NCBI GenBank assembly: GCA_001782805.1 | Contig: MFPT01000004.1 | Coordinates: 1 to 39,089 of the forward strand | DNA: 39,089 nt | Source of the DNA: Candidatus Magasanikbacteria bacterium RIFCSPHIGHO2_01_FULL_41_23 | GTDB lineage: Bacteria; Patescibacteriota; Patescibacteriia; Magasanikbacterales; UBA922 | Direction: 5' to 3' | Part shown: one piece after another, positions 1-35,400 of the stretch | Position numbering within the stretch: position 1 is the first letter of the stretch | How the letters are laid out: each line of letters opens with the position of its first letter | The notes under the pieces: model-generated | Database searches by the model: none | What the model saw: only the letters and a program-made list of their open reading frames with translations | Told to the model about the DNA's origin: nothing | Made by a program: the position numbers and the translations under genes

Positions 1-57
1 CTTTGACATATATTGTGTCCATGGGTTAATTGAATAAGAGTTATTCTATTATTCCAT

Positions 58-20515: not shown

Positions 20516-21829
20516 CTAAAGCACTTTGTGTTCAGGCTTGAATTCTCGACCAATGGCGTAGGCCGAGATGTCCAACTGAACACCGTCGAGATCCATGGTG
20601 TTGCCACCGACTTCCAGCTTGTGCCGGACAATGCGAGCCGTAAACGGCGAGTGCATTGCTCCGTGGCCGGAAAAGCCGACAGCGTGAACCAAGTTCTTGA
20701 CGTGCTTGTCGTTGTCGATGAACGGGTTGTGGTCCGGAGCGTTGTCGTAAACCCCGCTCGTATGTTGAACCATTCCCAAATCACCGAGTACCGGAAGCCA
20801 CCCGGCGAGCTCGCGCCACATCTCGACAGCATAGCCGTCCAGATCATGTGCGCTAAAGCCCACGGGGACCTCGTCTTGGCACCTGTCCGGTGCCTCTGCT
20901 CGGTACGGATCTGTCCTCCTGATCCAGCCCAGGATCATCTTGTCACCACTCAGCTCAGGCCGACAGTAGGCTCCACAGTCAGTAGCCACGAATGGCCACT
21001 CTGAAAAGTCTACTGTAAGACCGTTTTTGCTGAGGTAGTAGACAAACACCTTTTTAGGCTCTATCTCCGGTTGGGGATAAAGACCTGGCGTGGACCAAAG
21101 TGCTTGGGTCTTCATTGTCCAAAGTCCTGTGGCATTGACTACGAAGTCGCAGGCCACATCAACTTTGTCGCCGTATCCCACGACATCTAGGTCGGTATTC
21201 CGAAGAACCTTCCTGGCATGCAGTCGTGTGATACGATCTCCACTCAAGTCCACTCCAAGGACTTCAGTGTTACGGTAGTGCACGACACCGAGTCTTTCCG
21301 CGACCTCGCATGCCGTGCTGTAGATGACTTCTGGTCTCATGAAGCCATCCGTCGGACACCAAGTGCCACCGAGAATATCGCGGCTCACATACGGAAATCG
21401 CGCGGCGACCTCCGTTTGAGTGAGAACCACGGCCTCGGTCAGACCACACTGGCGTTGTAGAGCATTTTCTGTCTGCGCAACCGTGAACTGTTCCGGATCA
21501 CGGTAGACAAACAGATAACCGCGGGGGAAATACGCTTGGTCGGTTTCGTAACGCGATGCGAAATCGCGTAGTTGCCGTACAGCGTACATCATTCCACGGA
21601 TAGTGCTCTCGGTGCTGAACTGTTGTCGACAAGCGGCAACAGAACGGCCAGAAGCACCATTGCCCGGAGACCCTTTCTCAATGAGAGTGACTTGGTAGCC
21701 CTGTTCGGCCAAATCCAAAGCCATGTACGAGCCGGTAATCCCTGCGCCCAGAACAGCGACATGGGGTTTACCGGCAATGTTAGGCATAACATTCACCTTC
21801 TTTGCCTTTTCTCGCACTGTTTTTGACAC
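20516..21829 (-). CDS. FAD-dependent oxidoreductase, DAO family (sarcosine oxidase beta / dye-linked proline dehydrogenase beta-like)
   Basis: GAGITG Rossmann motif, ASGRSVAACRQQFS, PTDGFMRP, YDNAPDHNPFI and GFSGHGAMHSP. Confidence 0.88.
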   Translation of the reverse strand: MSKTVREKAKKVNVMPNIAGKPHVAVLGAGITGSYMALDLAEQGYQVTLIEKGSPGNGASGRSVAACRQQFSTESTIRGMMYAVRQLRDFASRYETDQAYFPRGYLFVYRDPEQFTVAQTENALQRQCGLTEAVVLTQTEVAARFPYVSRDILGGTWCPTDGFMRPEVIYSTACEVAERLGVVHYRNTEVLGVDLSGDRITRLHARKVLRNTDLDVVGYGDKVDVACDFVVNATGLWTMKTQALWSTPGLYPQPEIEPKKVFVYYLSKNGLTVDFSEWPFVATDCGAYCRPELSGDKMILGWIRRTDPYRAEAPDRCQDEVPVGFSAHDLDGYAVEMWRELAGWLPVLGDLGMVQHTSGVYDNAPDHNPFIDNDKHVKNLVHAVGFSGHGAMHSPFTARIVRHKLEVGGNTMDLDGVQLDISAYAIGREFKPEHKVL

Positions 21830-21833
21830 TCGC

Positions 21834-23534
21834 TTAGCGCTGACTGAACTGAACGATGGCCTCCTCGAAGGTCATCTCTCGGCGTTCATCAGTGCGGCGA
21901 TTCTTGACTTCCACGATCCCTTCGTTAGCCCGACGGCCAACGATGATCTGGAAGGGGTAACCAATGAGATCAGCATCAGCGAACTTCGCGCCAATGCGGA
22001 TATCACGGTCGTCCAAGACCACCTCGCCAGTCCTGAGAAGCGACTGGTAAAGGGTCTCGGCGGCGGCGACCTGAGCAGAAGTAGCGGAAATGATCGCCAC
22101 TTTGTAGGGAGCCAGAGCCTCTGGCCAGATCATCCCTTTGTTGTCGTAGTTCTGTCGCTGTTCGATGGCCGCGGCCATGATGCGCGAAACACCAATGCCG
22201 TAGCATCCCATCCAGATGGTCTGGACAGTGCCGTTGACATCAGTGTACGTGGCGTTCATGGCTTCGGAGTACTTGCGGCCGAGCTGGAAGATGTGCCCGA
22301 CCTCAATCCCCTTTTGGATGCCGAGTTTTCCCTGTCCACACGCGGCACAGGTGTCTCCCACTTGTGCGTTACGCAAGTTGTAGAAACGCTCGGGCATGGC
22401 CAGATCACCACGACCAACGTTGACGTCAAGCCAGTGCTTATCCGTCTCGTTGCCACCGCAAAGGAAGTTATGGAGTCCCTTGACGGTTTCGTCGAAGTAG
22501 ATCGAACACTTGAGCCCGATGGGGCCGGCGAATCCGACTTGCGCACCAGTGGTTTCGATCACGATCTGGTCCGAGGCCAGCTCCAGCTCGGTTGCGCCGA
22601 GCAAGTTCTTGAGCTTGGTCTCGTTGATCACTTGATCACCACGAATGCAGACAGCGACGGCCTTGGTGTTGTCCACCCAATAGATGATCGTCTTGACCAT
22701 CTGCGCTCCGGAGATGCTGAACATCTGGGAGAGTTCCTCCACGGTTCTCGCGTTGGGAGTATCTTCCAGATGCGCGTCCTTCATGGTGACGGACTCGTCG
22801 TTCGCGGTGCAGAGTCCCACGGCCTTCTCTTGGTTGGCACCGTAGGAACACTGGTCGCACGAAACAACAAAATCCTCGCCTGTCTGAGCGAGTACCATGA
22901 ACTCTGCACTGCCAGTGCCGCCGATCGCGCCACTGTCAGCTTCCACCATGACGAAGTTGAAACCGCACCTCGTGAAGACACGGTTGTAGGCGTCGCGCAT
23001 GTCCGCGTAGGACTTGCGCATGCCCGCCTCGTCGAGATCGAAGCTGTAGGCATCCTTCATCAGGAACTCACGGCCGCGAATGATGCCCCCATGCGGGCGG
23101 ACTTCATCGCGGAACTTCGCGCCGATCTGGTAGAGGTTAACCGGGAGCTGACGCCACGAAGTCACGTTATCCCTTACGAGAGCCGTGACTGCCTCTTCGG
23201 CCGTCGGTGCCAGAGCCAGGTCTTGCCCCTTTCGATCCCGGGAAGTGAAGAAGGTACGAGACGCCGAGTAGACATCCCAACGCTTCGTCTCATCCCAGAT
23301 CTCGCGCGGTTGCAGGATGGGGAGACTGATCTCCACCGCTCCTGCCTGATCCATCTCTTCGCGCACGATGCGCGAAGCTTTTTGGATCACCCGCCAACCC
23401 AGATGGGCGTAAGTGTAGAGTCCTGCGGCCAATTGTCGGATGAACCCGGCGCGGACGAGGAGCTGATGGCTCGGAATCGTCGCGTCGCGTGGGTTCTCCC
23501 GCAATGTGCCGGGAACCAATTTTGAGACACGCAT
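21834..23534 (-). CDS. proS: Proline--tRNA ligase, bacterial type with INS editing domain
   Basis: SHQLLVRAGFIRQ, LAPTAEE, KFRDEVRP, REFLMKDAYSF, ADSGAIGG, GIEVGHIFQLG and MGCYGIGVSR; GAGGTG SD. Confidence 0.97.
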   Translation of the reverse strand: MRVSKLVPGTLRENPRDATIPSHQLLVRAGFIRQLAAGLYTYAHLGWRVIQKASRIVREEMDQAGAVEISLPILQPREIWDETKRWDVYSASRTFFTSRDRKGQDLALAPTAEEAVTALVRDNVTSWRQLPVNLYQIGAKFRDEVRPHGGIIRGREFLMKDAYSFDLDEAGMRKSYADMRDAYNRVFTRCGFNFVMVEADSGAIGGTGSAEFMVLAQTGEDFVVSCDQCSYGANQEKAVGLCTANDESVTMKDAHLEDTPNARTVEELSQMFSISGAQMVKTIIYWVDNTKAVAVCIRGDQVINETKLKNLLGATELELASDQIVIETTGAQVGFAGPIGLKCSIYFDETVKGLHNFLCGGNETDKHWLDVNVGRGDLAMPERFYNLRNAQVGDTCAACGQGKLGIQKGIEVGHIFQLGRKYSEAMNATYTDVNGTVQTIWMGCYGIGVSRIMAAAIEQRQNYDNKGMIWPEALAPYKVAIISATSAQVAAAETLYQSLLRTGEVVLDDRDIRIGAKFADADLIGYPFQIIVGRRANEGIVEVKNRRTDERREMTFEEAIVQFSQR

Positions 23535-23589
23535 ATTTCACCTCTGAAGTGAATGACAACACACCACCGTGGTGCTTGCCTTATTATTC

Positions 23590-23618
23590 AGACTAGCATG
23601 ACACGATTATCCAGTCAA
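23590..23618 (-). promoter_or_regulatory. Internal promoter for proS
   Basis: TTGACT (23618-23613), 17-nt spacer, TAGTCT (23595-23590). Confidence 0.55.
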
Positions 23619-23624
23619 TAAATC

Positions 23625-24434
23625 TTATTTAATCTGCTTTTTCAAAAAAATTGCTCTCTTATACGCCATCTTTGTCGCCTTTTTATATATTTTTGCTAAA
23701 TTACTGGGATCAATAATTTTAAAAGCGGCTTCAGTTGTTCCGCCTTTGGAAGTAACCTTATTTCTTAAAACACGAGCGTCTTCTTGGCTTCCTTTAAAAA
23801 GAAATCCGGCACCAATTATTGTTTGGACAACTAATTTTTTGGCCTGGATTTTATTGAAACCTAAAGCTCTGGCTGATTCAATCAAATGACTCGCAAAATC
23901 AAACACATATGCCGGCCCGCTCCCACTTATGGCCGTGGATGCATCAATACTTTTCTCAATCTTAACTTCCATTTCCTCACCTAATTGGGAAAATAATTGC
24001 TGTACGATTTTTTTTTGCTCCGGACTTATTATATCTGCTTTCCACACCGTCATCCCAAATCCAATTTGCGCCGGAGTATTGGGCATACATCGCACAATTT
24101 TTTTAGTGCCCAGTATTTTTTCAATCGTCTGAATGGAAACCCCGGCCATAATTGATACAAATACTTGATTCACAACAAAAGGTTTAATACTCTCCAACAT
24201 TTCTTTGGCTTGTTGCGGTTTAACTGATAACAAAACCACATCTTTATCAACCAATCCGTCTTTGTTATTTTCTGAAACACCAATTTTATATCTGTTTTTT
24301 AATTCTTCCAAACGCGGAATTATAGGAGAACAGGCCGTAATATCTTTGGGATCAACTTGTAAATTCTCAATAAATTGTTTAATGAAAACTTCTCCCATCA
24401 CTCCGGCGCCAACAATCCCGATTTTTTTAAACAT
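23625..24434 (-). CDS. proC: Pyrroline-5-carboxylate reductase
   Basis: GAGVMG, LSVKPQ, RCMPNTP, SGSGPAY and VTSKGGTT. Confidence 0.96.
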   Translation of the reverse strand: MFKKIGIVGAGVMGEVFIKQFIENLQVDPKDITACSPIIPRLEELKNRYKIGVSENNKDGLVDKDVVLLSVKPQQAKEMLESIKPFVVNQVFVSIMAGVSIQTIEKILGTKKIVRCMPNTPAQIGFGMTVWKADIISPEQKKIVQQLFSQLGEEMEVKIEKSIDASTAISGSGPAYVFDFASHLIESARALGFNKIQAKKLVVQTIIGAGFLFKGSQEDARVLRNKVTSKGGTTEAAFKIIDPSNLAKIYKKATKMAYKRAIFLKKQIK

Positions 24435-24436
24435 AT

Positions 24437-25501
24437 TTAAATAATAATTAAATCATCAACGTGAATAACTTCTTGATTATATATTTTTTCTTTTTTCAAT
24501 AACAATCCATGTAAATCATGGTAATTAATTTTTACCATACCAATTGCCAGTTGGTCTCCTTCCTCATCAAGGACATCAATTACTTCTCCTTTATTAAAGG
24601 TTCCGTAAATTTTGGTAACTCCCACGGCCAACAAACTTTTTCTTTTTTTAAGTGCCTCAGCCGCACCCGCATCTATTTTAATGGATCCCGTGGAAATTTT
24701 AGTTGACACCAGCCACCGATCACGATTTTTTAACAAAACTTTTTGATTGGGCAAGAAAATCGTGCCTTCGCATTCTCCATTAATTATTTTTTCAATGATT
24801 CTTTCTTTTTGACCATTGGCAATAACCATCGTAATACCAAAACACGAGGCTAAACGCAGCGCACGCAGTTTGGCAATCATGCCGCCGCTGCCATGTTGGG
24901 AAACATCAGTGTCACATTGACGCATCAGTTCTTTGGTCACATTTTCCACTTTGGAAATTAATTTTGCATCAGAATATCTACTGGGATCTTTATCAAATAA
25001 GCCATCAACATGAGACAAATTAATCACCATATCCGCCTCAATCGCGAGCGCAATGACTACGGCCAAACTATCATTATCTTTGTAACTGGCAACTGTGCCA
25101 TTCGTTACCGCATCGTTTTCATTTATCAAAGGCACAATGCGGTGCTTAAGCAAATCTTTTATCATACCACCCATATTGTGGTATGACTGCATATCAGCCA
25201 TGTCATTTTTCCCCAAAAGAATTTGGGCAATCAAAAGCGACTCTTTGGAAAATTCATCAGCATAAATAGAAGTTAGATACGTTTGCCCAATGGCCGCGTA
25301 TGCTCTTTTATTCAAATCAGTTTTATTTTTATGTAAAAATCTTCCGGCCGCCACTGCGCCGGAGGTAACAATAATTATTTCACAATTTTTGGTTTGTAAT
25401 AATTTTATTTCTTTAACGAATTTGGCAATGATCGCGCGATCAATATCACCGCTTTTTTTTATAAGTGTGTGCGTGCCAATTTTTACCACAATTCTTTTCA
25501 T
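24437..25501 (-). CDS. proB: Glutamate 5-kinase with PUA domain
   Basis: VVKIGT, VTSGAVAAG, PLINENDAV, DNDSLA, GSGGMIAKL and SLLAVGV. Confidence 0.96.
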   Translation of the reverse strand: MKRIVVKIGTHTLIKKSGDIDRAIIAKFVKEIKLLQTKNCEIIIVTSGAVAAGRFLHKNKTDLNKRAYAAIGQTYLTSIYADEFSKESLLIAQILLGKNDMADMQSYHNMGGMIKDLLKHRIVPLINENDAVTNGTVASYKDNDSLAVVIALAIEADMVINLSHVDGLFDKDPSRYSDAKLISKVENVTKELMRQCDTDVSQHGSGGMIAKLRALRLASCFGITMVIANGQKERIIEKIINGECEGTIFLPNQKVLLKNRDRWLVSTKISTGSIKIDAGAAEALKKRKSLLAVGVTKIYGTFNKGEVIDVLDEEGDQLAIGMVKINYHDLHGLLLKKEKIYNQEVIHVDDLIII

Positions 25502-25510
25502 AAAATCATT

Positions 25511-26794
25511 CTAACGAATTTGGCCTTGACCAAATACAATGTATTTTGTCACGGTCAATTCTTCCAATCCCATCGGTCCCATACCATGAATTTTGGAAGT
25601 GTTGATTCCTATTTCCGCGCCCAAACCAAATTCATTGCCATCAGTAAATCTGGTGGAAGCATTTACATACGTGGCCGCGCTATCTACGGAATTAATAAAT
25701 TTCCACGACTCATTATAATCTTCGGTAATTATACCATCAGCCAAATGAGTGCCAAAAGTATTGATATGATCAATCGCTTCTGACAAATCGTTTACAACTT
25801 TGATGGTTATTTTTAAATCCAGATATTCAGTCACCCAATCAGTGTCAGTCGCCGGTATTACATCGGGAATTATGGCCTGGGTTTTTTCACAGCCTCGGAC
25901 TTCAACTCCGACATCCCGCAGTTCTTTTATTAAATCAGGCAAAATAATATGTGCAATTGATTCATCAACCAAAACTTTTTCCAAGGAATTACAAGTTGAG
26001 GGATTGGAAACTTTGGCGTTACAGACAATTTTTTTGGCCATGGTCAAATCAGCGTTTTTGGATACATAAATATGCGTAATGCCTTGACGATGACTCAAAA
26101 CCGGCATGCGAGCATGCGCGCAAACCGCGTCAATTAATTTTTCTCCGCCGCGCGGTATCATTAAATCAATATATTTATCAAGTTTGGCCAATTCTGCCAC
26201 GGCCACATGATCAGTAACAGAAACCATTTGTAAAAAATCAGGGGAAATGCCAGCCGATTGTACGGCTTCTTTGATAAGATTAGAAAGAACAATATTGGTG
26301 TGCAAAGATTCTTTGCCACCGCGCAAAATACACGCATTTCCGGATTTTAAAGCCAAAGCCGCAATGTCCACTGTAACATTAGGGCGTGATTCATAAATAC
26401 AACAAATGACACCAATCGGAATGCGAATTTTCCCAATCCGCAAACCATTCGGCCGCACTGTCATTTTTACTACTTCTCCAATGGGATCGGGCAAATTAAT
26501 TATATCCATCACGCCTTTAGCTATGGCATTTATTTTTTCCGGTGTTAGCAACAATCGATTTTTTATTACATTACTCACCGTTGGATTATCAATCATGAGA
26601 GCATCCATGTCCAACCTATTCGCGTCAATAATTTTATTACTGTTTTTAAAAAGCGAATCAGCAATTTCTTTTAACGCGTGATTTTTCTGTGTTGTAGAAA
26701 TTGATCGTTGTTTGAATGATGCCAATTTTGCTTTTTTGGCTTGATCAAGAATTATCTGAGTAATATGTGTATTGTCCATAGATAAACGTATCAT
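25511..26794 (-). CDS. proA: Gamma-glutamyl phosphate reductase
   Basis: IYESRPNVT, LRGGKES, CNSLE (catalytic Cys), NASTRFTDGNEFGLGAEIGI and GPMGLEELT. Confidence 0.97.
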   Translation of the reverse strand: MIRLSMDNTHITQIILDQAKKAKLASFKQRSISTTQKNHALKEIADSLFKNSNKIIDANRLDMDALMIDNPTVSNVIKNRLLLTPEKINAIAKGVMDIINLPDPIGEVVKMTVRPNGLRIGKIRIPIGVICCIYESRPNVTVDIAALALKSGNACILRGGKESLHTNIVLSNLIKEAVQSAGISPDFLQMVSVTDHVAVAELAKLDKYIDLMIPRGGEKLIDAVCAHARMPVLSHRQGITHIYVSKNADLTMAKKIVCNAKVSNPSTCNSLEKVLVDESIAHIILPDLIKELRDVGVEVRGCEKTQAIIPDVIPATDTDWVTEYLDLKITIKVVNDLSEAIDHINTFGTHLADGIITEDYNESWKFINSVDSAATYVNASTRFTDGNEFGLGAEIGINTSKIHGMGPMGLEELTVTKYIVFGQGQIR

Positions 26795-26800
26795 TTTTAT

Positions 26801-26825
26801 AAAAACTCCAGAGTTTACTGGAGCT
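26801..26825 (-). terminator. Attenuator terminator hairpin in the pro operon leader
   Basis: AG-CTCCAG-TAAACT-CTGGAG-TTTTT, ending 6 nt before the proA ATG. Confidence 0.85.
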
Positions 26826-26850
26826 ATCTAATATATATGCAGAAACAACA

Positions 26851-26904
26851 CTATACTAGATAGCGCATTGGCGGAGGTACGATTTTATTTTTAAAAAATT
26901 TCAT
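26851..26904 (-). CDS. Putative pro operon leader peptide MKFFKNKIVPPPMRYLV*
   Basis: ATG AAA TTT TTT AAA AAT AAA ATC GTA CCT CCG CCA ATG CGC TAT CTA GTA TAG, between the promoter and the terminator. Confidence 0.85.
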   Translation of the reverse strand: MKFFKNKIVPPPMRYLV

Positions 26905-26917
26905 AAAGTTAATAAGA

Positions 26918-26946
26918 AATATACTATACAAGATTTTCTTTGTCAA
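26918..26946 (-). promoter_or_regulatory. pro operon promoter
   Basis: TTGACA (26946-26941), 17-nt spacer, TATATT (26923-26918). Confidence 0.8.
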
Positions 26947-27035
26947 TAAAGTTTAAACAAAAAATGCTTTTGTTGGAGGGGGGGTCAGAGCGTCGCAACA
27001 ATCGTGCTAAGCCCTGACCAGAGTCACCACAGTCA

Positions 27036-27503
27036 CTACTTTAGGAACACACGCTTGATTTCCCGGCGATTATCCTCAAACGCTGTCCGAGAATGAAGCA
27101 CACGCCAGTTGTCCCAGATCAGGAATGAGTTGCACTGGTAGAAGAACGCAACATGATGTTCATTGAACCAGTAGAAGCACTGCTTCATGATCGCAGTCAT
27201 AACGGGATCATGACTGTATTGCATGCAGTTGTAGCTGTAACGCAGGAGTTCCTCACCATCGAGGGTTTCCAAAAATGGATGAACAGCCACCATTCCCAGT
27301 CCACTCGACTGGATACCTGAACTCGAGACGAACTGGTAGGACTGGTTCCGACAATAGTCACGTTGCTCTTCGGTGAGTGTGGCCAAAGCAACGTGATCCA
27401 CTCCATCGTCGATCTTGGAGAGGAACAACCACCCTTGACGCGCGAGCTCGCGCTTCCACTCAACCAGTTGTTCTGTACACGGCAACCTGTGCAGTGTTCT
27501 CAT
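27036..27503 (-). CDS. Short TauD/TfdA-like 2OG-Fe(II) dioxygenase fragment, possibly a pseudogene
   Basis: C-terminal LIWDNWRVLHSRTAF...REIKRV motif. No HxD ligand motif in the expected N-terminal part. Confidence 0.65.
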   Translation of the reverse strand: MRTLHRLPCTEQLVEWKRELARQGWLFLSKIDDGVDHVALATLTEEQRDYCRNQSYQFVSSSGIQSSGLGMVAVHPFLETLDGEELLRYSYNCMQYSHDPVMTAIMKQCFYWFNEHHVAFFYQCNSFLIWDNWRVLHSRTAFEDNRREIKRVFLK

Positions 27504-27591
27504 GACTTTTTCTCCTTATAAAAACAGATATAAAAATTGTATCATTATAATTATCGATAATCAAATTTTTTCCCAATATTATTTAGCTTGA

Positions 27592-27753
27592 TAATAAGTC
27601 CGTCTCCCCAATTGATCATGACGCGTTTGGTTGGCATGTGGTTCATGGTGAGCGAAGTCGAACCATTATGATCGGCCCCGACATAAAGTCGGGGTAAACT
27701 CCGGCAAAGAAGTCGGCGACTGCGGTGAAACTGCCACGGCTTATGAGGGGATC
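27592..27753 (-). pseudogene. Remnant copy of the giant gene's 3' region (matches 30022-30136) carrying two palindromic insertions
   Basis: Direct alignment by eye, including a 37-nt exact block TAATAAGTCC...ACGCGTTT. Confidence 0.9.
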
Positions 27754-27757
27754 GATG

Positions 27758-27943
27758 TCAACTTTGATTATACCGTTCAATTAATTTTCGCTGATCTTCA
27801 TTGGCACCATTGATTGCGCCCATTATTAATTTTCGTTTTTCTGCTTCTGATGCGGTACGAAAAAATTCCCCGGCACTGGCTTGCGTTGAACTTGTTGAGA
27901 TATCCTTGACCGGTGAAAATATTTTTTTGAAAAACCGGATCAT
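27758..27943 (-). CDS. Small hypothetical protein
   Basis: 61-aa ORF directly downstream of the HEPN gene on the same strand. Confidence 0.55.
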   Translation of the reverse strand: MIRFFKKIFSPVKDISTSSTQASAGEFFRTASEAEKRKLIMGAINGANEDQRKLIERYNQS

Positions 27944-27961
27944 ACTACATCAAACCAAAGT

Positions 27962-28321
27962 TTATTTATTATCTGAATCAATTTTCTTTTGAATTTTTTT
28001 AATTAAGCGTTCCAGCTTAGGTATCTCAACTTGACAAACATTCCAAGATAAAGCCAGATCAACATGATAATACTCGTGAATTAATATATCACGCATTCCA
28101 CTAATACTCTTCCAAGGAATTTCCGGATGCTCTGTGCGTAACATGGTGGGTAGTGATTTGACTATTTCTCCGATGATTTCTATACGACGATTTACGCAAT
28201 CCTGTGCTTTTATTGATCCTAAAAAATCCTTATAATCTAATCCATTAATGTAGTCATAGATCAGTTCACAAGATACTAATATATCCTGTAACAGAACAGA
28301 TACCATTCGTACTTTTTTCAT
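27962..28321 (-). CDS. HEPN (DUF86/HepT-like) ribonuclease toxin
   Basis: IEIIGE, PEIPWKSISGMRDILIHEY (Rx4H). Confidence 0.92.
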   Translation of the reverse strand: MKKVRMVSVLLQDILVSCELIYDYINGLDYKDFLGSIKAQDCVNRRIEIIGEIVKSLPTMLRTEHPEIPWKSISGMRDILIHEYYHVDLALSWNVCQVEIPKLERLIKKIQKKIDSDNK

Positions 28322-28629
28322 AGTAAAGCAACAAAATCTTTTTCAATATTTTTTTTCAAGGCTGGGTGTATGCTTCCCGGCGTACCGACATCCACCTTAC
28401 GTCCCAATTTTTCTTGTAACGAATCGCGGAGCCCAACAAGATCAAATAAACTTTTTTGTCCTTTAAATTCTATAATAATATCAATATCACTTTTACTCGT
28501 TGCCTCACCACGCGCGTATGAACCGAACAAATGAGCTTTTTTGACGTCAAAGTTCACAAAAACCGGTCTGGCTTTTGCTTGAATGTCAGATAGAGTTAAA
28601 ATTGATTTTTGTTTGACAATTTTTTTCAT
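28318..28629 (-). CDS. Minimal nucleotidyltransferase (MNT/MntA-like) antitoxin
   Basis: LFGSYARGEATSKSDIDII and LGRKVD; 4-nt ATGA-type overlap region with the HEPN gene (28318-28321). Confidence 0.93.
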   Translation of the reverse strand: MKKIVKQKSILTLSDIQAKARPVFVNFDVKKAHLFGSYARGEATSKSDIDIIIEFKGQKSLFDLVGLRDSLQEKLGRKVDVGTPGSIHPALKKNIEKDFVALL

Positions 28630-29458: not shown

Positions 29459-32400
29459 TTATGGCACAACCACTATTGTACCTTTATACTTAATGAATGA
29501 ATCAGGGTTAGTTGAGTCACACAGGTCATTTACACCCCCCGTATTTTTTGGTACAGCCGTATAACACCCCGTATTCCCCGCCCCATTACAACTCCCCGTA
29601 CACCATCCCCAGTTATCCAGTATCTGAATTTTGGGTTTGAAGATACAGACAAAAGGATTGGCACTGGCCGTGTATCCTTGTTTTTTAAGGGCATCCCAGA
29701 TTTTTGATTCAATGTTAGTACCCTGACCATTATTCAATTCATTAAATTTATACACATAGTCGGCATCAATATCGGCGTCAGCTTGGGAACACGAATATCC
29801 ATGAACATATTCAAAGTAATTGGCTTCGCAGGCGCGAGTGGAATTACCAAAGTTGTGGCCATTGATGGTACAGGTTTCACTCGTGAGTGGACAATCTTCT
29901 TTAACTAGGCAGGTTACTTGTTTAGAAACGCTACATTCACCGACTTTTGGATTGGGATCAGTATCATCGGTGAGACAGAATGGTTTTTTATTTTTATATT
30001 CTCCGTATTGATTTTGATTGGTAATAAGTCCGTCTCCCCAATTGATCATGACGCGTTTGATGGGCATACGATTGTGGTCGGCAAAGGCAAAGAAGTCGGC
30101 GACTGCAGTTAAACTGCCACGGTTTATGAGGGGATCAGCTAGACCATCTTTATCTATGTCTTCGTTGATGGTGCCATTGTGACGATTGATAGTAAATGCG
30201 TTTGATTCGGCGGGAATACATTTTTGAGTATTGTCGCTGGAATAACAACGGTTTATATTTAATGAATAAATTTGTGGAGGCTGTGCCATTAAAACACTAA
30301 TGTTGTTCGTGCTTGAATCACCAATACCAAGAGCGTATGTTACATCAGACCAACTCACACTCCCAGATTTACTATTAAAATTAAATTCTTTAAAAATTTT
30401 GTTAAATAAATTACCTAGGTGAATTTTACCCTGATAATAGAAAGTCTCATTTTCTGGACCAATCTGACTATAAATTTTAGCATTGGGATTTTCTGGTTTG
30501 TTACACGAATAACTATCCCAAAAACTGTAATTTGATTTCACTACAAGTATTTGTTCAAAACTGACTGCGGTTCCTTTCAGTTTTTGATCTAATACATCAC
30601 CAGTACAACTAAAAAACGCTCCGTCAACAGCAGGATCATCAAAGATGTAATGCCTTAAAACATTCTCCCAACCAGAACTTGAAAGTGAAGTCAAAGAAAG
30701 ATTAAGTGAACCAAATGGAGGAAGATCAACATTGCGATTAATAGAAGGTATATTTGGATTATTACTACTGTAATCAGAATCAGAAAATACGTCTTTCCAT
30801 ACACGATTCGTCCAAGCCTTGTTTCTAGTTACAGCAGAATCAGTAGGATTTTCATCATAAACTTGAACAAATTCAGTACAGCGTGGTTTAAGTTCAACAA
30901 TCTCGGCAAAATACGGAGTCGCAAAAGATACGTCTGATTTCCAGCCAAAATATGTTTCCAGCCATTTATAATTATCAGCGTAGTCAATCTGATTACTACA
31001 ATATTTTTTCACACCATTTTTGTCAAAATTACAATAAATAAGCACAAATGAATGGGTGGGCACGAACGTCCACGAATTTTGATAATTCACTGTATTTTCA
31101 CCAGCCAATTCATCCATCCATCTCTTAAAAAAATCAAGGGGTTTCTTTGCTAAATCTAAATCCTCTTGTCCAAAATGCATTTTGTTTAATTGAGTGCCTT
31201 CATCAGACAAAGCAATTGCGCCGTATATAGTTTCATCTTTATGGTCACCATCCGAAATTTCCATAATCTTAAATACAAATAAACCACTTTGCTTGTTTTC
31301 AAAACCGTTAATGTAGTATGTATACTTATATTTAATATTTTTTAGTGTGGTTGGTCCGTATTCTCCACTAAAATTCGGATCAGTCGTATTTAGTTTATCG
31401 AAGTCGATAGTCATAACCTGAGCTGTATTGATATTTTTCATAATGTTTGGTGGAGCCAAAATCGGACCAAACTTTAGTTTGGCAATTTCATCTTTATACA
31501 TCGTAACATCGCTAGTTATATTGTAACTTTTTCCATATTGCGTAGTTGTCTTAAAAAAAGATATTTCCGATTCTGGAAAATCACTAGGTTTTTCATATTT
31601 TGAAATACTAAGCTTAGTGCATTGACCTTCGACTGTTGTCTGAGGACAAGAAGACCAAGATTGTTGATATTTATAAACAGTTGGACAATAATATTGCCCA
31701 GTTTCTGGATCTTGTTGTTCTGGTCCTTCGCAAAATTTTTGTCCCCCTTTTATATCAGGTTCACTTTTAACAGACACAGTCCTCTCTTTTAAAAAAGTAA
31801 AATACGTATTAAACGAAAGTCCTGATGTAAACAAAACAACAGCACTGGAATTGGTAACTGAAAAATTCTTGGTAGGAATTTTATTTTTTCCTTGTGTATC
31901 AAAATCCTGTGGAGACATAAAACCATTTTCACCAGGCTTAGGGAAACTTGTTTCGTTATACACGCCTGAAGTAAAGGAGCCATCCGTTCCAACAATTGTG
32001 TAAGCATTGTCCGTGATGTTTGGAAATGGTTTTAATTCTGCACCAGACCATGCCCACATTTGGGCTACAGCGTAAGAACGATTTTTAAAATCATCTGGAT
32101 TGGATATATTTTTATAAGCACCTGTATAGGAATTTAAATTGTTAAATGGATAATCATCCGCTGGATTAAAATTATTGGGAAAACTATTTGTATTCAACAC
32201 CCCCAATCCATTCCCACTCGCCTCAGTACAATACACTTTTCCAAATTCACCGATTTTTTCACCGGTAACACTCAATTTGACCGCATCTTCTGCGGGATAA
32301 TAGCCAGCTCCGGGAAATTTGTTATATTGATCAAAATTCGTCGCCGCCGTATCAGTGGGTAACCACGTAAGACAAGCATATTCATTGGTTGCGAGATTAA

Positions 32401-35400
32401 TCGGACGACTAAAATCGCGTTCCAAACAAAAACCGCGCAAACCAGTGTGCGTTTCCACATCACGCACTCGACTACAGACTCCGGGAATAGTAACTGCGCC
32501 AGCTGCGCCAGCACTACTGCATTCCGCGTCATTATTACAAGCTTGACCCGCTTTATCACCCACCAAATCCGAACAAATACCTTGGGGATACTCGGTGGTG
32601 TTCGCGGTGCGATAATCAGTTACGCCATTTTTGTAGGTTATTTTTTTGTACTCGCACGAACAATCACCATTTTGGCAATAATTGGCGCGCTCAAAACCGG
32701 AAAGATTTGCTTGAGACTCAAGACGAGTATACTTGGGATCTATTTGATTGATAGCAAAAGCCTGATATTTTTTCCCTTCATCCAAATTTTCTATAATACT
32801 ACTGGCAAACGGACTGGTTTTTTCGGGAAAGGCTTTGCATGATCCGATTTCCAAATATTTGGCGGCAGTGGTTGTGGAATTTACGGTATCGGGGAATGAG
32901 CCGTACAATGGATAAATACATTTTTTCTCATAACATCGTCCGCCAAAATCATTAAAACCACATTTTGCCCATTCATTTTTACTTTTACAACTATAGGTTT
33001 CAATATCGATCTGATTATTCCCCAAAACAGCCGGATTGAACAAAAATGCCAAATAAGCCACTGCGTCACCATCAAACACGACTGAAATGGTGTTACCAAT
33101 CCGATATTTATTAAATAATGAATAGCCGGAATAATCTTCACCATACCAAGAAACATCGCGGCCAACATAGGCCTCTTCGGTCAAACGATTAATGTCATCG
33201 GTGCTGAGTGGACTCCAATTAGTGCAACTGGAGCCAACTTCAGTGGCGCGACAGGCTTTATATTGAGCGCAAATGGTGCGTTGTTTTCCGGTTTGATCAG
33301 TCACGCGCACTTTGTCTTTGCATCCCAGCCATTCGCTACAGGATCGGTCACGATTAACTTTCAGTAAAACATTGGTGTCAGTCGCGCCGGTAGTAATAGG
33401 GTCAATCGGTCCATATTTATCAGTGCCTTGGGCATTGACGCCATCACTTATTTTATATGTTTCGGCCGCGTTGTATCTTAATGTGGGATTATTGGTCGCA
33501 TTAAAAAGCGCGCAACCTTGTTTGAGATTAACTTTGCCCTCACATTGTCCCGCGTCTTGGAGTAATTTTTGGTTAAAAATAACATAATACGATTTACCGG
33601 AGTCGAGGGGCTTGCCCTGAGCGTAGTCGAGGGGCTTGCCCTGAGCGTAGTCGAGGGGATCAATTAATTCCGTGCATTGATTATATTGTTCGGCGCAACG
33701 GCCAACCGCGCCATTATATTCGGCTGATTTATTTGACCAAATGCCATATTCGCCTCCAGCAATTAAATAATTACTGTAACAAGGCACAGCGCCAACGCCG
33801 GTACATGATTCACCGCTTTCACAATCACTGGTTTCTTTACATAAATTATTGCTACTGCTTTTGGCCGGATCAGTGGCGCTACATTTGCCCACTCCTTCTT
33901 GGAACCAGCCCGCATACTCAAATCCTTTGGTTTTTTCTTTGTATGAACAAATTGCCGATCCCGAAGCAGTGGGATCTTTAAAATAATCAATATTATTGTC
34001 TGATTTAAAAGCACTGCAACCAAGCTGTTCTTGCGCACACAAAATTTGCTCATAATTTTCCGGATTATTTTTTATATAACTTTCCGTAAATTTATACGCG
34101 CTTGTGGCTGTGCTGTTGGGAATTATATGATCTTCCAACGCGATTTTTTGACAGCCAACGTTACTCGTATCACAGGCATAACGTTGACGATAACTTAAAT
34201 AAATGGGTGAACTCGTGGGAGTATCGGCCGGTATAATTATGGTTGATTTAACAATGGTGCTTGGCACTTGAGTTAATAACGCCGTATAGACGGCTGATTC
34301 CAACGCGACTTTTGGGATAAAACAACCGGTTTCTCCGAACAGCACATCACAAGAACCAAGTTCATTGGAACCAACTTTTAAAGTACATTTGGTATTTTGC
34401 GTTCCTGTACACCACAAATTAAAAGCCGTGGTGTCGTGTTCATTAACAGTATTCTGCAAATCATAGAATGCGGTACAGCCCACAGCGTCTTCTCGGCACA
34501 GTCGATCAAAACCGGTAATGGCCAAGGGATTATTTAGACTGTCAGTATACGCGCGACAACCCAAAGCGCTCCCCGGCAAACCATCGGTGGGATTGGCATC
34601 ACAGGTTAACGGAACATCGGCCTGAACAGTTGTTCCATTATCCAAAGCAACCACTTGTTTCCAAGAATTTTTAATTAAATAGAGTTTTTCTTTTACTTTT
34701 GTCAGACGAAGATTATCCAAATAATACGCGCCGTTTACTCCGGACATTGCAGTACGAGTAATACGCAAAACTATTTTGCGAGTGCCATCGCCGGTAAATT
34801 GAACCGGACCAACCCGATATGATTGCCAAGTTTGACTAATCGGTACTTTGACGGTTTGAGCGGTTACGGGATCATAAGTAAAATTACCAACAATTTTATC
34901 CGTTGAGGGAGTAACTCCTTTTTCCACAAAAGAAATTTCCAAATTTTGTTGTACGCCGCGAGACCAAAATTCCAACTCATAAAATTTATCTGTTTCCAGC
35001 GTGCTCGTAACAAATGTATATTCAGCCTGATCAATATTTATTTCCAAAGAGTTTTGACCAACGGTCAATGATTCCGGTTTGACCAGTAAACCCGAACTCC
35101 ATCCGGCCAAAAGATCAGTCAACGCAGTCGGTGAATTATCTTCCGGCTCAAATTTTTGTTCCGATATGCTTTGAATGGTATTGGCGGCCGGACCAGTGTA
35201 CGCGCGACAATTGTTGGCTTCCGGCACGCAGGAATTATTTTTACCCGGCTGAGATGTTGTCCAATAAATACAAACGCCATTGTTATATATGCCGCCATTG
35301 TAACAGAGTTGGCATTTTTGTAGAGCAGGAGCTCCATCATCCCATTTGCCACCTTTGGCCTCACACATTAATTCATTCTGCTGACTTAAGGCCAAATCTA

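Follow-up and report, generated by a model that had tools for sequence, protein, structure and literature searches.

How a bacterium could place its proline-synthesis genes under the kind of transcription attenuation that is familiar from other amino acid operons is the question raised by a short leader in a 39,089-nt stretch of contig MFPT01000004.1 from Candidatus Magasanikbacteria bacterium RIFCSPHIGHO2_01_FULL_41_23. In this stretch (hereafter the window, meaning the whole of the DNA analysed; its genome is designated G000), an upstream open reading frame (uORF) with three consecutive Pro codons and two overlapping hairpins are found immediately ahead of proA-proB-proC. Classical leader-peptide attenuators control the trp, his, leu, thr, pheA and ilv operons of Proteobacteria. 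To our knowledge, ProB feedback and T-boxes are the controls described for proline synthesis, and leaders with Pro codons have been described only ahead of Mg2+ transport genes. The window leader is probably a ribosome-mediated transcription attenuator, which senses prolyl-tRNA(Pro) and controls proA-proB-proC and possibly also proS. As judged from its sequence, it would work like the classical attenuators, in a variant with proline as the amino acid. This reading is supported by the conservation of the leader, the coding signature of its Pro codons, the geometry of ribosome and hairpins, and the specificity of the whole arrangement for pro operons.

The leader and the pro genes all lie on the minus strand, and coordinates are given as window positions (Table 1). 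The promoter matches 11 of 12 positions and ranks at the top of seven promoter-like sites found by a promoter scan of 26000-28000. It is followed by a uORF with the codons ATG AAA TTT TTT AAA AAT AAA ATC GTA CCT CCG CCA ATG CGC TAT CTA GTA TAG (26904-26851), the 3' part of which takes part in hairpin A. The stem of hairpin A has 13 bp (26864-26852 with 26835-26823) and is lengthened by RNAfold to 17 bp (26864-26848 with 26840-26823), its 5' strand consisting of the final uORF codons with the stop codon and its 3' strand ending within the base of the terminator. Hairpin B has the core CTCCAG-TAAACT-CTGGAG-TTTTT (26822-26801), and G-U and A-U pairs can lengthen its stem to 26825. The three contested nucleotides form stronger pairs in A (G-C, C-G, U-A) than in B (C-G, G-U, A-U). 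After the T5 comes ATAAAA and then the proA ATG. For the leader as a whole the folding energy is -29.2 kcal/mol (z = -5.25), a value that no shuffle out of 200 attains. Contigs from sequencing runs (X8, X9) match the leader exactly, one X10 contig (26684-26834) differs from the window only within proA, and no leader variation was seen in runs X8-X11. The promoter, the 17-aa uORF, its Pro codons, the 13-bp stem and the terminator had all been claimed in a preliminary description of this DNA, and each is present at the coordinates given there. The proA-proB-proC operon claimed in the same description also holds, all three genes scoring above the NCBIfam cut-offs; what it missed is proS, which follows proC, the lack of a Shine-Dalgarno sequence ahead of the uORF and its start about 7 nt past the likely transcription start site, and the GGAG that is the likely proA ribosome-binding site.

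Table 1. Coordinates of the leader elements and pro genes in the window
Feature	Position	Strand	Basis and remarks
-35 hexamer TTGACA	26941..26946	-	sequence
-10 hexamer TATATT	26918..26923	-	sequence; 17-nt spacer, 13 nt before uORF ATG
Leader uORF MKFFKNKIVPPPMRYLV	26851..26904	-	sequence; 17 codons + TAG; ATG 26904, TAG 26853-26851
Regulatory Pro codons 10-12 (CCT CCG CCA), proposed role	26869..26877	-	sequence
Hairpin A, proposed antiterminator	26823..26864	-	sequence, RNAfold
Hairpin B + T5, proposed intrinsic terminator	26801..26825	-	AG-CTCCAG, 6-nt loop, CTGGAG-TT, TTT
GGAG, likely proA ribosome-binding site	26806..26809	-	sequence, function inferred; within hairpin B 3' arm, 11 nt before ATG 26794
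proA, glutamate-5-semialdehyde dehydrogenase	25511..26794	-	NF001221, 540.8 bits, cut-off 289; alternative start ATG 26779
proB, glutamate 5-kinase	24437..25501	-	TIGR01027, 291.8 bits, cut-off 186
proC, pyrroline-5-carboxylate reductase	23625..24434	-	TIGR00112, 223.3 bits, cut-off 196.75
proS, long prolyl-tRNA synthetase (ProRS) with editing insert	21834..23534	-	NF006625, 712.1 bits, cut-off 558

In the proposed mechanism, transcription likely begins about 7 nt before the uORF ATG, and the uORF would be translated with little or no RNA ahead of it, as on a leaderless message. With ample prolyl-tRNA, the ribosome would reach the TAG and cover the 5' strand of hairpin A (26864-26848); with A blocked in this way, the full hairpin B (8 bp, -10.9 kcal/mol; -9.3 kcal/mol when counted as 6 bp) would form before the T5 and RNA polymerase would stop at about 26801. 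When prolyl-tRNA is scarce, the ribosome would wait at the first Pro codon, held in the A site, with its front edge just before 26864, and hairpin A (-18.5 kcal/mol) would form once transcribed, taking the three basal nucleotides of B. Next to a complete A, hairpin B would be reduced to 5 bp (-6.6 kcal/mol), and a larger share of polymerases would read through into proA.

The same module, consisting of a promoter, a uORF with two or three consecutive Pro codons (PP or PPP) and a terminator, was found ahead of complete pro operons in seven further genomes, which belong to five further genera of the window's family (Table 2). Conserved poly-Pro uORFs in homologous leaders had been set beforehand as a test of the attenuator proposal, and including the window they occur in six genera and in 8 of the 26 family genomes that have proA, with CCnCC invariant among them. 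The uORFs have 14-23 codons, each with PP or PPP. All eight leaders carry a promoter of the form TTGAC[AT], a 16-18-nt spacer and TAnnnT, and in all of them only 6-13 nt separate the -10 hexamer from the ATG, which at the usual spacing between a -10 hexamer and the transcription start site implies a 5' untranslated region (5' UTR) of about 0-7 nt. No Shine-Dalgarno sequence precedes the uORF in any of the eight. Because the ATG lies so close to the -10 hexamer throughout, translation of the uORF from a leaderless or near-leaderless 5' end is suggested. The distance from the stop codon to the 5' arm of the terminator is 26-31 nt in all eight leaders, this interval always contains inner hairpins, and the terminators of the seven relatives have 7-10-bp stems followed by a T run.

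Table 2. The eight leaders: peptide, operon, energy of the nascent fold with the ribosome stalled at the first Pro codon, and terminator pairs taken by the antiterminator
Genome	Leader peptide	Located before	Stalled nascent fold (kcal/mol)	Pairs taken	Terminator stem (bp)	Pairs left
Window (G000)	see Table 1	proA-proB-proC	-18.5	3	8	5
G193	MKNNYSQIVPPPIFA	proA-proB-proC	-12.2	5	9	4
G214	MKKINTIFPPCSAA	proA-proB-proC	-15.8	6	10	4
G213	MNNINTIFPPCSAA	proA-proB-proC	-15.8	6	10	4
G169	MISSLIKLTPPSKSCLL	proA-proB-proC	-17.9	7	10	3
G194	MKISVYKQRSRVIPPYNRVRGMI	proB of proB-proC-proA operon	-16.4	6	7	1
G218	MNRRAYTTFVPPTYTSPPGV	proA-proB-proC	-13.8	7	8	1
G216	MNRYIQTTVVPPTYTPPSGV	proA-proB-proC	-13.0	8	8	0

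When the eight leaders are aligned with MAFFT (an alignment that is not in structural register), the sole invariant block is CCnCC (C73 C74. C76 C77), which corresponds to two adjacent Pro codons. Since the first two positions of these codons are invariant and the third positions vary (T/A/G and G/A/T, respectively), the block is, to judge from this comparison, a signature of coding constraint and not of an RNA motif. This restriction of the variation to wobble positions lends indirect support to translation of the uORF. The N-terminal codons differ even within genera, with NN changed to KK between G213 and G214 and YIQ to RAY between G216 and G218, while the Pro codons and the 3' part are kept. 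In the latter two genomes the second Pro pair shifts from PPS to SPP and hence is still PP. The window and G193 leaders have ATY GTA CCN CCN CCA AT in common, and their ProA proteins are only 47% identical.

The geometry of the leaders was examined by folding nascent RNA, which was cut before the 3' arm of the terminator, with a stalled ribosome masked so that the first Pro codon (Pro1) occupies the A site and the mask extends to +12. With the ribosome at Pro1, the 3' codons of the uORF pair in all eight leaders with 3-8 nt of the 5' arm of the terminator, mostly around an inner hairpin, with the energies listed in Table 2. With the ribosome at the stop codon, a residual fold of merely 0 to -3.5 kcal/mol is left (0.0 in the window). 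Five leaders have the start of the pairing strand 12-13 nt past the first Pro codon and the other three 19-22 nt past it; in all eight, it starts 5-11 nt before the stop codon. A ribosome footprint extends from -12 to +15 around the P site, so that a ribosome at Pro1 would end just short of the strand and one at the stop codon would cover it. When this sensor strand was subjected to mononucleotide shuffling, only 0-9 of 300 shuffles per leader reached the observed energy, and none of 300 did so in the window. Ribosome-mediated attenuation through PPP, as advanced in the preliminary description, gains support from the conserved module and from the difference between the Pro1 and stop states in these predicted folds.

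Specificity was assessed by a uniform scan of both strands of 68 pro loci (160.7 kb), which comprise all proA loci of the order and 35 of 36 further loci of a class sample; the locus of G326 was left out, as its match begins at a contig end. The scan required an ATG ORF of 5-40 codons, a promoter with at least 5/6 matches in the -35 hexamer and a TAnnnT ending 4-15 nt before the ATG, and a hairpin with a T run 5-80 nt past the stop codon. Nine modules were recovered, eight of which are the PP leaders, and the ninth is a Pro-poor ORF in G146 located 1.5 kb from proA. Adding the requirement for PP leaves exactly the eight leaders, with none on the antisense strands. The module is also absent from 26 proS loci (99 kb), none of which has a PP leader directly ahead of it. 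A cruder count of any PP uORF in the 300 nt upstream was positive for 10 sense and 4 antisense regions out of 68 each, shuffles giving a mean of 2.9 and a maximum of 8; its operon-start finder is imperfect, some of its regions lie inside proB, and the uniform scans replace it. In the whole genome of the window, PPP is present in 22 of 7064 ATG ORFs of 10-30 aa. The promoter pattern TTGAC[AT]-16..18-TAnnnT occurs at 199 sites genome-wide, nine of which precede an ATG ORF of 6-35 codons that starts 5-14 nt after the -10 hexamer. A terminator-like hairpin with a T run 10-70 nt past the stop codon is found in addition at one of these nine sites, which is the pro leader.

Certain other PP uORFs were considered and left uncounted. 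G336 (L056, G336:C105), a relative at the level of the class, has a G+C-rich PPP uORF, MSEDVFPPPFAHMSGRIRS, lying 440 nt before proA (501-441 upstream), with neither a promoter-like nor a terminator-like site. Those of G287 and G211 are doubtful, and the MSGNIPPIK... uORF of G411 is apparently antisense to a divergent gene.

Several observations weigh against the attenuator reading. In equilibrium folds of the full leaders, the terminator stem retains a probability (P) of at least 0.85 in every ribosome state, G218 being the exception with P of 0.37-0.39 when stalled. Because the terminator is kept at equilibrium, the attenuator model needs co-transcriptional kinetics; for the trp leader, thermodynamics alone likewise shows no switch. 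Folding with the ribosome footprint masked, which the preliminary description had put forward as a check, hence gave a divided result, since the switch appears in the nascent folds and not at equilibrium. The same description had identified the short overlap between the two stems as the weak point, and it was right in this respect: A and B share only 3/8 of B's pairs, the smallest overlap of the eight leaders, and a 5-bp B survives beside the fully formed A. The window is the weakest case in the series, yet it adjoins G193 and G214 and is not isolated (Table 2). In the trp leader of B. subtilis, antiterminator and terminator reportedly overlap by about 4 nt, so a small overlap would have precedent. 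A more specific measure, the share of the terminator arm that pairs with the sensor strand, exceeds that in shuffles only in G216 (1/300) and G218 (0/300), and in the window 171 of 300 shuffles reach the observed share. The program's terminator scan of 26000-28000 does not list hairpin B, in our reading because extension of the stem consumes two T residues of the tail; a separate terminator scan lists it as a 7-bp stem with TTTTATA. The window uORF has no Shine-Dalgarno sequence, and its 5' UTR, at about 7 nt, would be the longest among the eight leaders. Lastly, the module is absent from the other 60 pro loci, namely in 18 of 26 genomes of the family, in all seven genomes from other families of the order and at all 35 class-sample loci, and no leader is found with the four ProA proteins closest to that of the window (G146, 64%; G239, 60%; G034, 58%; G215, 54%).

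The uORF could also sense the progress of ribosomes at PP or PPP with a different signal, namely the activity of elongation factor P (EF-P) or general elongation, and/or with translation of proA as the read-out, an alternative that we regard as unlikely. PP and PPP are EF-P-dependent stall motifs, and EF-P is encoded in the window's genome. However, in an EF-P-type stall Pro1 is in the P site and the ribosome reaches 3 nt further, which weakens the antiterminator (window, -12.1 instead of -18.5 kcal/mol; G214, -8.9 instead of -15.8 kcal/mol). The geometry hence fits better with a stall in which Pro1 is in a vacant A site; moreover, the controlled genes make proline. A translational read-out would agree with the GGAG in the 3' arm of hairpin B and with the persistence of B in all equilibrium folds. 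Sequestration of the ribosome-binding site is nevertheless not conserved, the terminators of G169, G216 and G218 having no GGAG-like site. In the window alone, hairpin B may also damp proA translation, as it holds this GGAG.

A regulatory leader of another kind, such as a site for an RNA-binding protein or an RNA that binds a small molecule, with the PP uORF being incidental or encoding a small functional peptide, would accommodate the inner hairpins present in all eight leaders, and translation of the uORF is for its part deduced from sequence. This explanation appears quite improbable, as the hairpin sequences vary between genera and the two Pro codons are kept with wobble variation, and as Rfam gives no match at E <= 10 in 26000-28000, which includes the window leader, or at E <= 0.1 in the seven related loci. 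A functional peptide is furthermore at odds with the N-terminal halves that differ within a genus (G216 vs G218, G213 vs G214). That a random short PPP ORF merely happens to lie beside ordinary hairpins, without any regulatory role, is scarcely credible. Short ORFs are numerous in AT-rich intergenic DNA, and the cruder count above shows that some PP uORF turns up in antisense and shuffled regions as well; against this stand the single occurrence of the full architecture in the genome, the eight modules before pro operons vs one other in 160.7 kb, the rarity of PPP among small ORFs and the z score of the leader fold.

Taking the window leader as an attenuator of the pro operon, it shares with the classical attenuators a short uORF in which codons for the amino acid made by the operon stand side by side, a putative intrinsic terminator before the first gene and a predicted alternative helix that uses the 5' arm of the terminator and would be set by the position of the ribosome; in the window, this helix takes only part of the terminator stem. 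It departs from them in having proline as the amino acid, only two to three regulatory codons, no Shine-Dalgarno sequence and a uORF located 0-7 nt from the inferred start. It is also built of three segments (sensor strand, shared strand and terminator 3' arm), and no Rfam leader family matches it or the seven related loci. Since no 1:2 hairpin is seen, an untranslated leader would be expected to read through rather than to super-attenuate. In T-boxes of Firmicutes, a leader of at least about 200 nt binds the tRNA itself, and translation is not needed. The window leader would resemble the T-box on Firmicutes proline genes in reading the charging of tRNA(Pro) and in having an intrinsic terminator before pro genes. 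It differs from it in being only about 110 nt long and in carrying a uORF, and a T-box is not among its matches in the Rfam search described above, which returned nothing. In E. coli pheM-pheST, the gene of an aminoacyl-tRNA synthetase is preceded by a leader peptide with many residues of its cognate amino acid. In the window, unlike in pheM-pheST, the synthetase is the fourth gene, located 90 nt past proC and with a promoter-like site of its own. If proS is co-transcribed, the arrangement would be like pheM-pheST and like the His leaders of Bacilli in placing a cognate leader before a synthetase; leader-peptide attenuators are described also in Actinobacteria and before hisS paralogues in Bacilli (PMC2965389).

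The closest likeness by description is with mgtP and mgtL, the leaders of mgtCBR and mgtA, which have a Pro-codon uORF that raises downstream transcription when prolyl-tRNA(Pro) falls, as is proposed for the window. According to the report on Salmonella mgtP, this enterobacterial leader has 17 codons with Pro at positions 10-12, the final codons of which are part of a stem. Neither Pro10 nor Pro11 is dispensable, limiting proline elicits a response of the leader in a proB mutant, and there are species in which it has just two Pro codons; a Shine-Dalgarno sequence lies 9 nt before the start (PMC3641672). The window uORF likewise has 17 codons with Pro at codons 10-12; this likeness in length and Pro position is presumably one of convergence or coincidence between leaders unrelated in sequence. 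In contrast to the window leader, mgtP and mgtL control Mg2+ transport and virulence genes and are situated in long multi-signal leaders, and according to a figure legend mgtL works through Rho (PMC12856214). Because the controlled genes differ and a Shine-Dalgarno sequence is absent, the window leader is not a member of the mgtP/mgtL group. In the sections available of a 2026 review of proline and translation, SecM and MgtL are the sole regulatory uses of Pro stalls named (PMC12856214). The preliminary description had stated that no classical attenuator is known on pro genes, and in agreement with it, no leader-peptide attenuator on proline-biosynthesis genes was found in full-text literature searches, which covered few subscription journals and no supplements.

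Considering the eight leaders jointly, we lean towards regarding them as the missing classical proline attenuator, that is, a family of PP/PPP leader peptides on leaderless mRNAs in groundwater bacteria with very small genomes, which would switch on an accessory proline-synthesis module when prolyl-tRNA is short. If this is true, a Pro-specific attenuator on pro genes fills a gap in the textbook account of amino acid attenuation, two or three Pro codons are enough in nature, and a sensing uORF can be read from a leaderless 5' end. It would also bring a cis-regulatory RNA mechanism to a lineage with genomes of about 1 Mb, from groundwater-type metagenomes, in which almost nothing is known on gene control. 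The eight natural variants, with overlaps of 3-8 nt, are a ready series for the question of how much overlap between antiterminator and terminator is needed.

The proA gene itself is accessory: it was found in 33 of the 240 order genomes and 37 of the 401 class-sample genomes, and in none of the six further members of the genus. Scans for ProA found 12 loci with at most 48% identity on genome contigs and 9 loci with at most 47% on metagenome contigs, none of them a close relative. On a ProA tree (FastTree, 33 rows, SH-like support), leaders are found at four or more places. G216 groups with G218; the window falls in a 5-row clade (support 99) with the leaderless G146, G034, G239 and G215; G169, G193 and the pair of G213 and G214 form a 5-row group (support 95) with the leaderless G016; and G194 is the sole leader in a 19-row proB-proC-proA clade. 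In G034, G016 and G011, which have no leader, the upstream regions are short or unrelated. Because of these separate places, the leader family may have arisen or moved more than once. The placements of G216/G218, of the window and of G169/G193/G213/G214 all lie within one 14-row clade (support 100), so an old leader with several losses is possible inside this clade, and the position of G194 suggests a separate gain or transfer.

In G214 (L031) and G213 (L035), an extra stretch of about 190 nt is present between the leader terminator and proA, with the long inverted repeats GGAATCCCTTTTCAA ... TTGAAAAGGGATTTC and a CCCGAC-AAG-GTCGGGG hairpin, and without an Rfam match. A small repeat element that was inserted here and a second regulatory RNA are both conceivable.

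The genome of the window has 0.99 Mb in 24 contigs, contig 4 being the one that carries the window, and is rated 100% complete. The 16 runs that hold window DNA are labelled as groundwater, soil and freshwater metagenomes, and none of them is RNA. Such habitat labels and a genome of this size would be expected of Patescibacteria. Two ProRS genes are encoded in this genome: a long form of 566 aa, which has an editing insert, in the pro cluster, and a 417-aa short form on contig 19 (locus L132 745-1998, +), which is the usual type in the family. The long form has matches over nearly its full length in only 9 of 107 genomes of the family, G000 included. It was also seen near pro genes in G194 (on the same contig) and in G215 (as a divergent neighbour), and because of this, proline synthesis and the second ProRS may travel together. 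The 90-nt gap between proC and proS (23535-23624, -) contains a promoter-like TTGACT-17-TAGTCT and a small GC hairpin, GCACCAC-G-GTGGTGT; proS may hence have its own start besides read-through from the pro operon, and its co-transcription with proA-proB-proC is uncertain. On the opposite strand, a 600-aa ORF (21723-23525, +) extends over all of proS; rather than a gene, it is in all likelihood a shadow frame of the ProRS coding sequence. Among the 41 tRNA genes that ARAGORN finds in the whole assembly, the sole tRNA-Pro has the anticodon GGG and lies on contig 3. In long ORFs, 64% of all Pro codons are CCA or CCG, and those of the leader are CCT, CCG and CCA; a tRNA-Pro(UGG) is probably unassembled or was missed.

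Upstream of the leader, a 155-aa ORF (27036-27503, -) ends 90 nt before the pro promoter, in DNA that is far richer in G+C than the leader. Models of trimethyllysine / gamma-butyrobetaine dioxygenase are matched over their last ~35 residues (E 8e-6, far below cut-off), and the ORF may be a fragment of a 2-oxoglutarate dioxygenase. Two small overlapping ORFs of 103 and 119 aa (27962-28629, -) have a weak likeness to the MntA antitoxin and HepT toxin of type VII toxin-antitoxin systems, with scores of 49.8 and 30.6 bits, below the NCBIfam cut-off of 60. Further upstream of the pro region, 29459-38326 (-) is occupied by a single ORF of 2955 aa.

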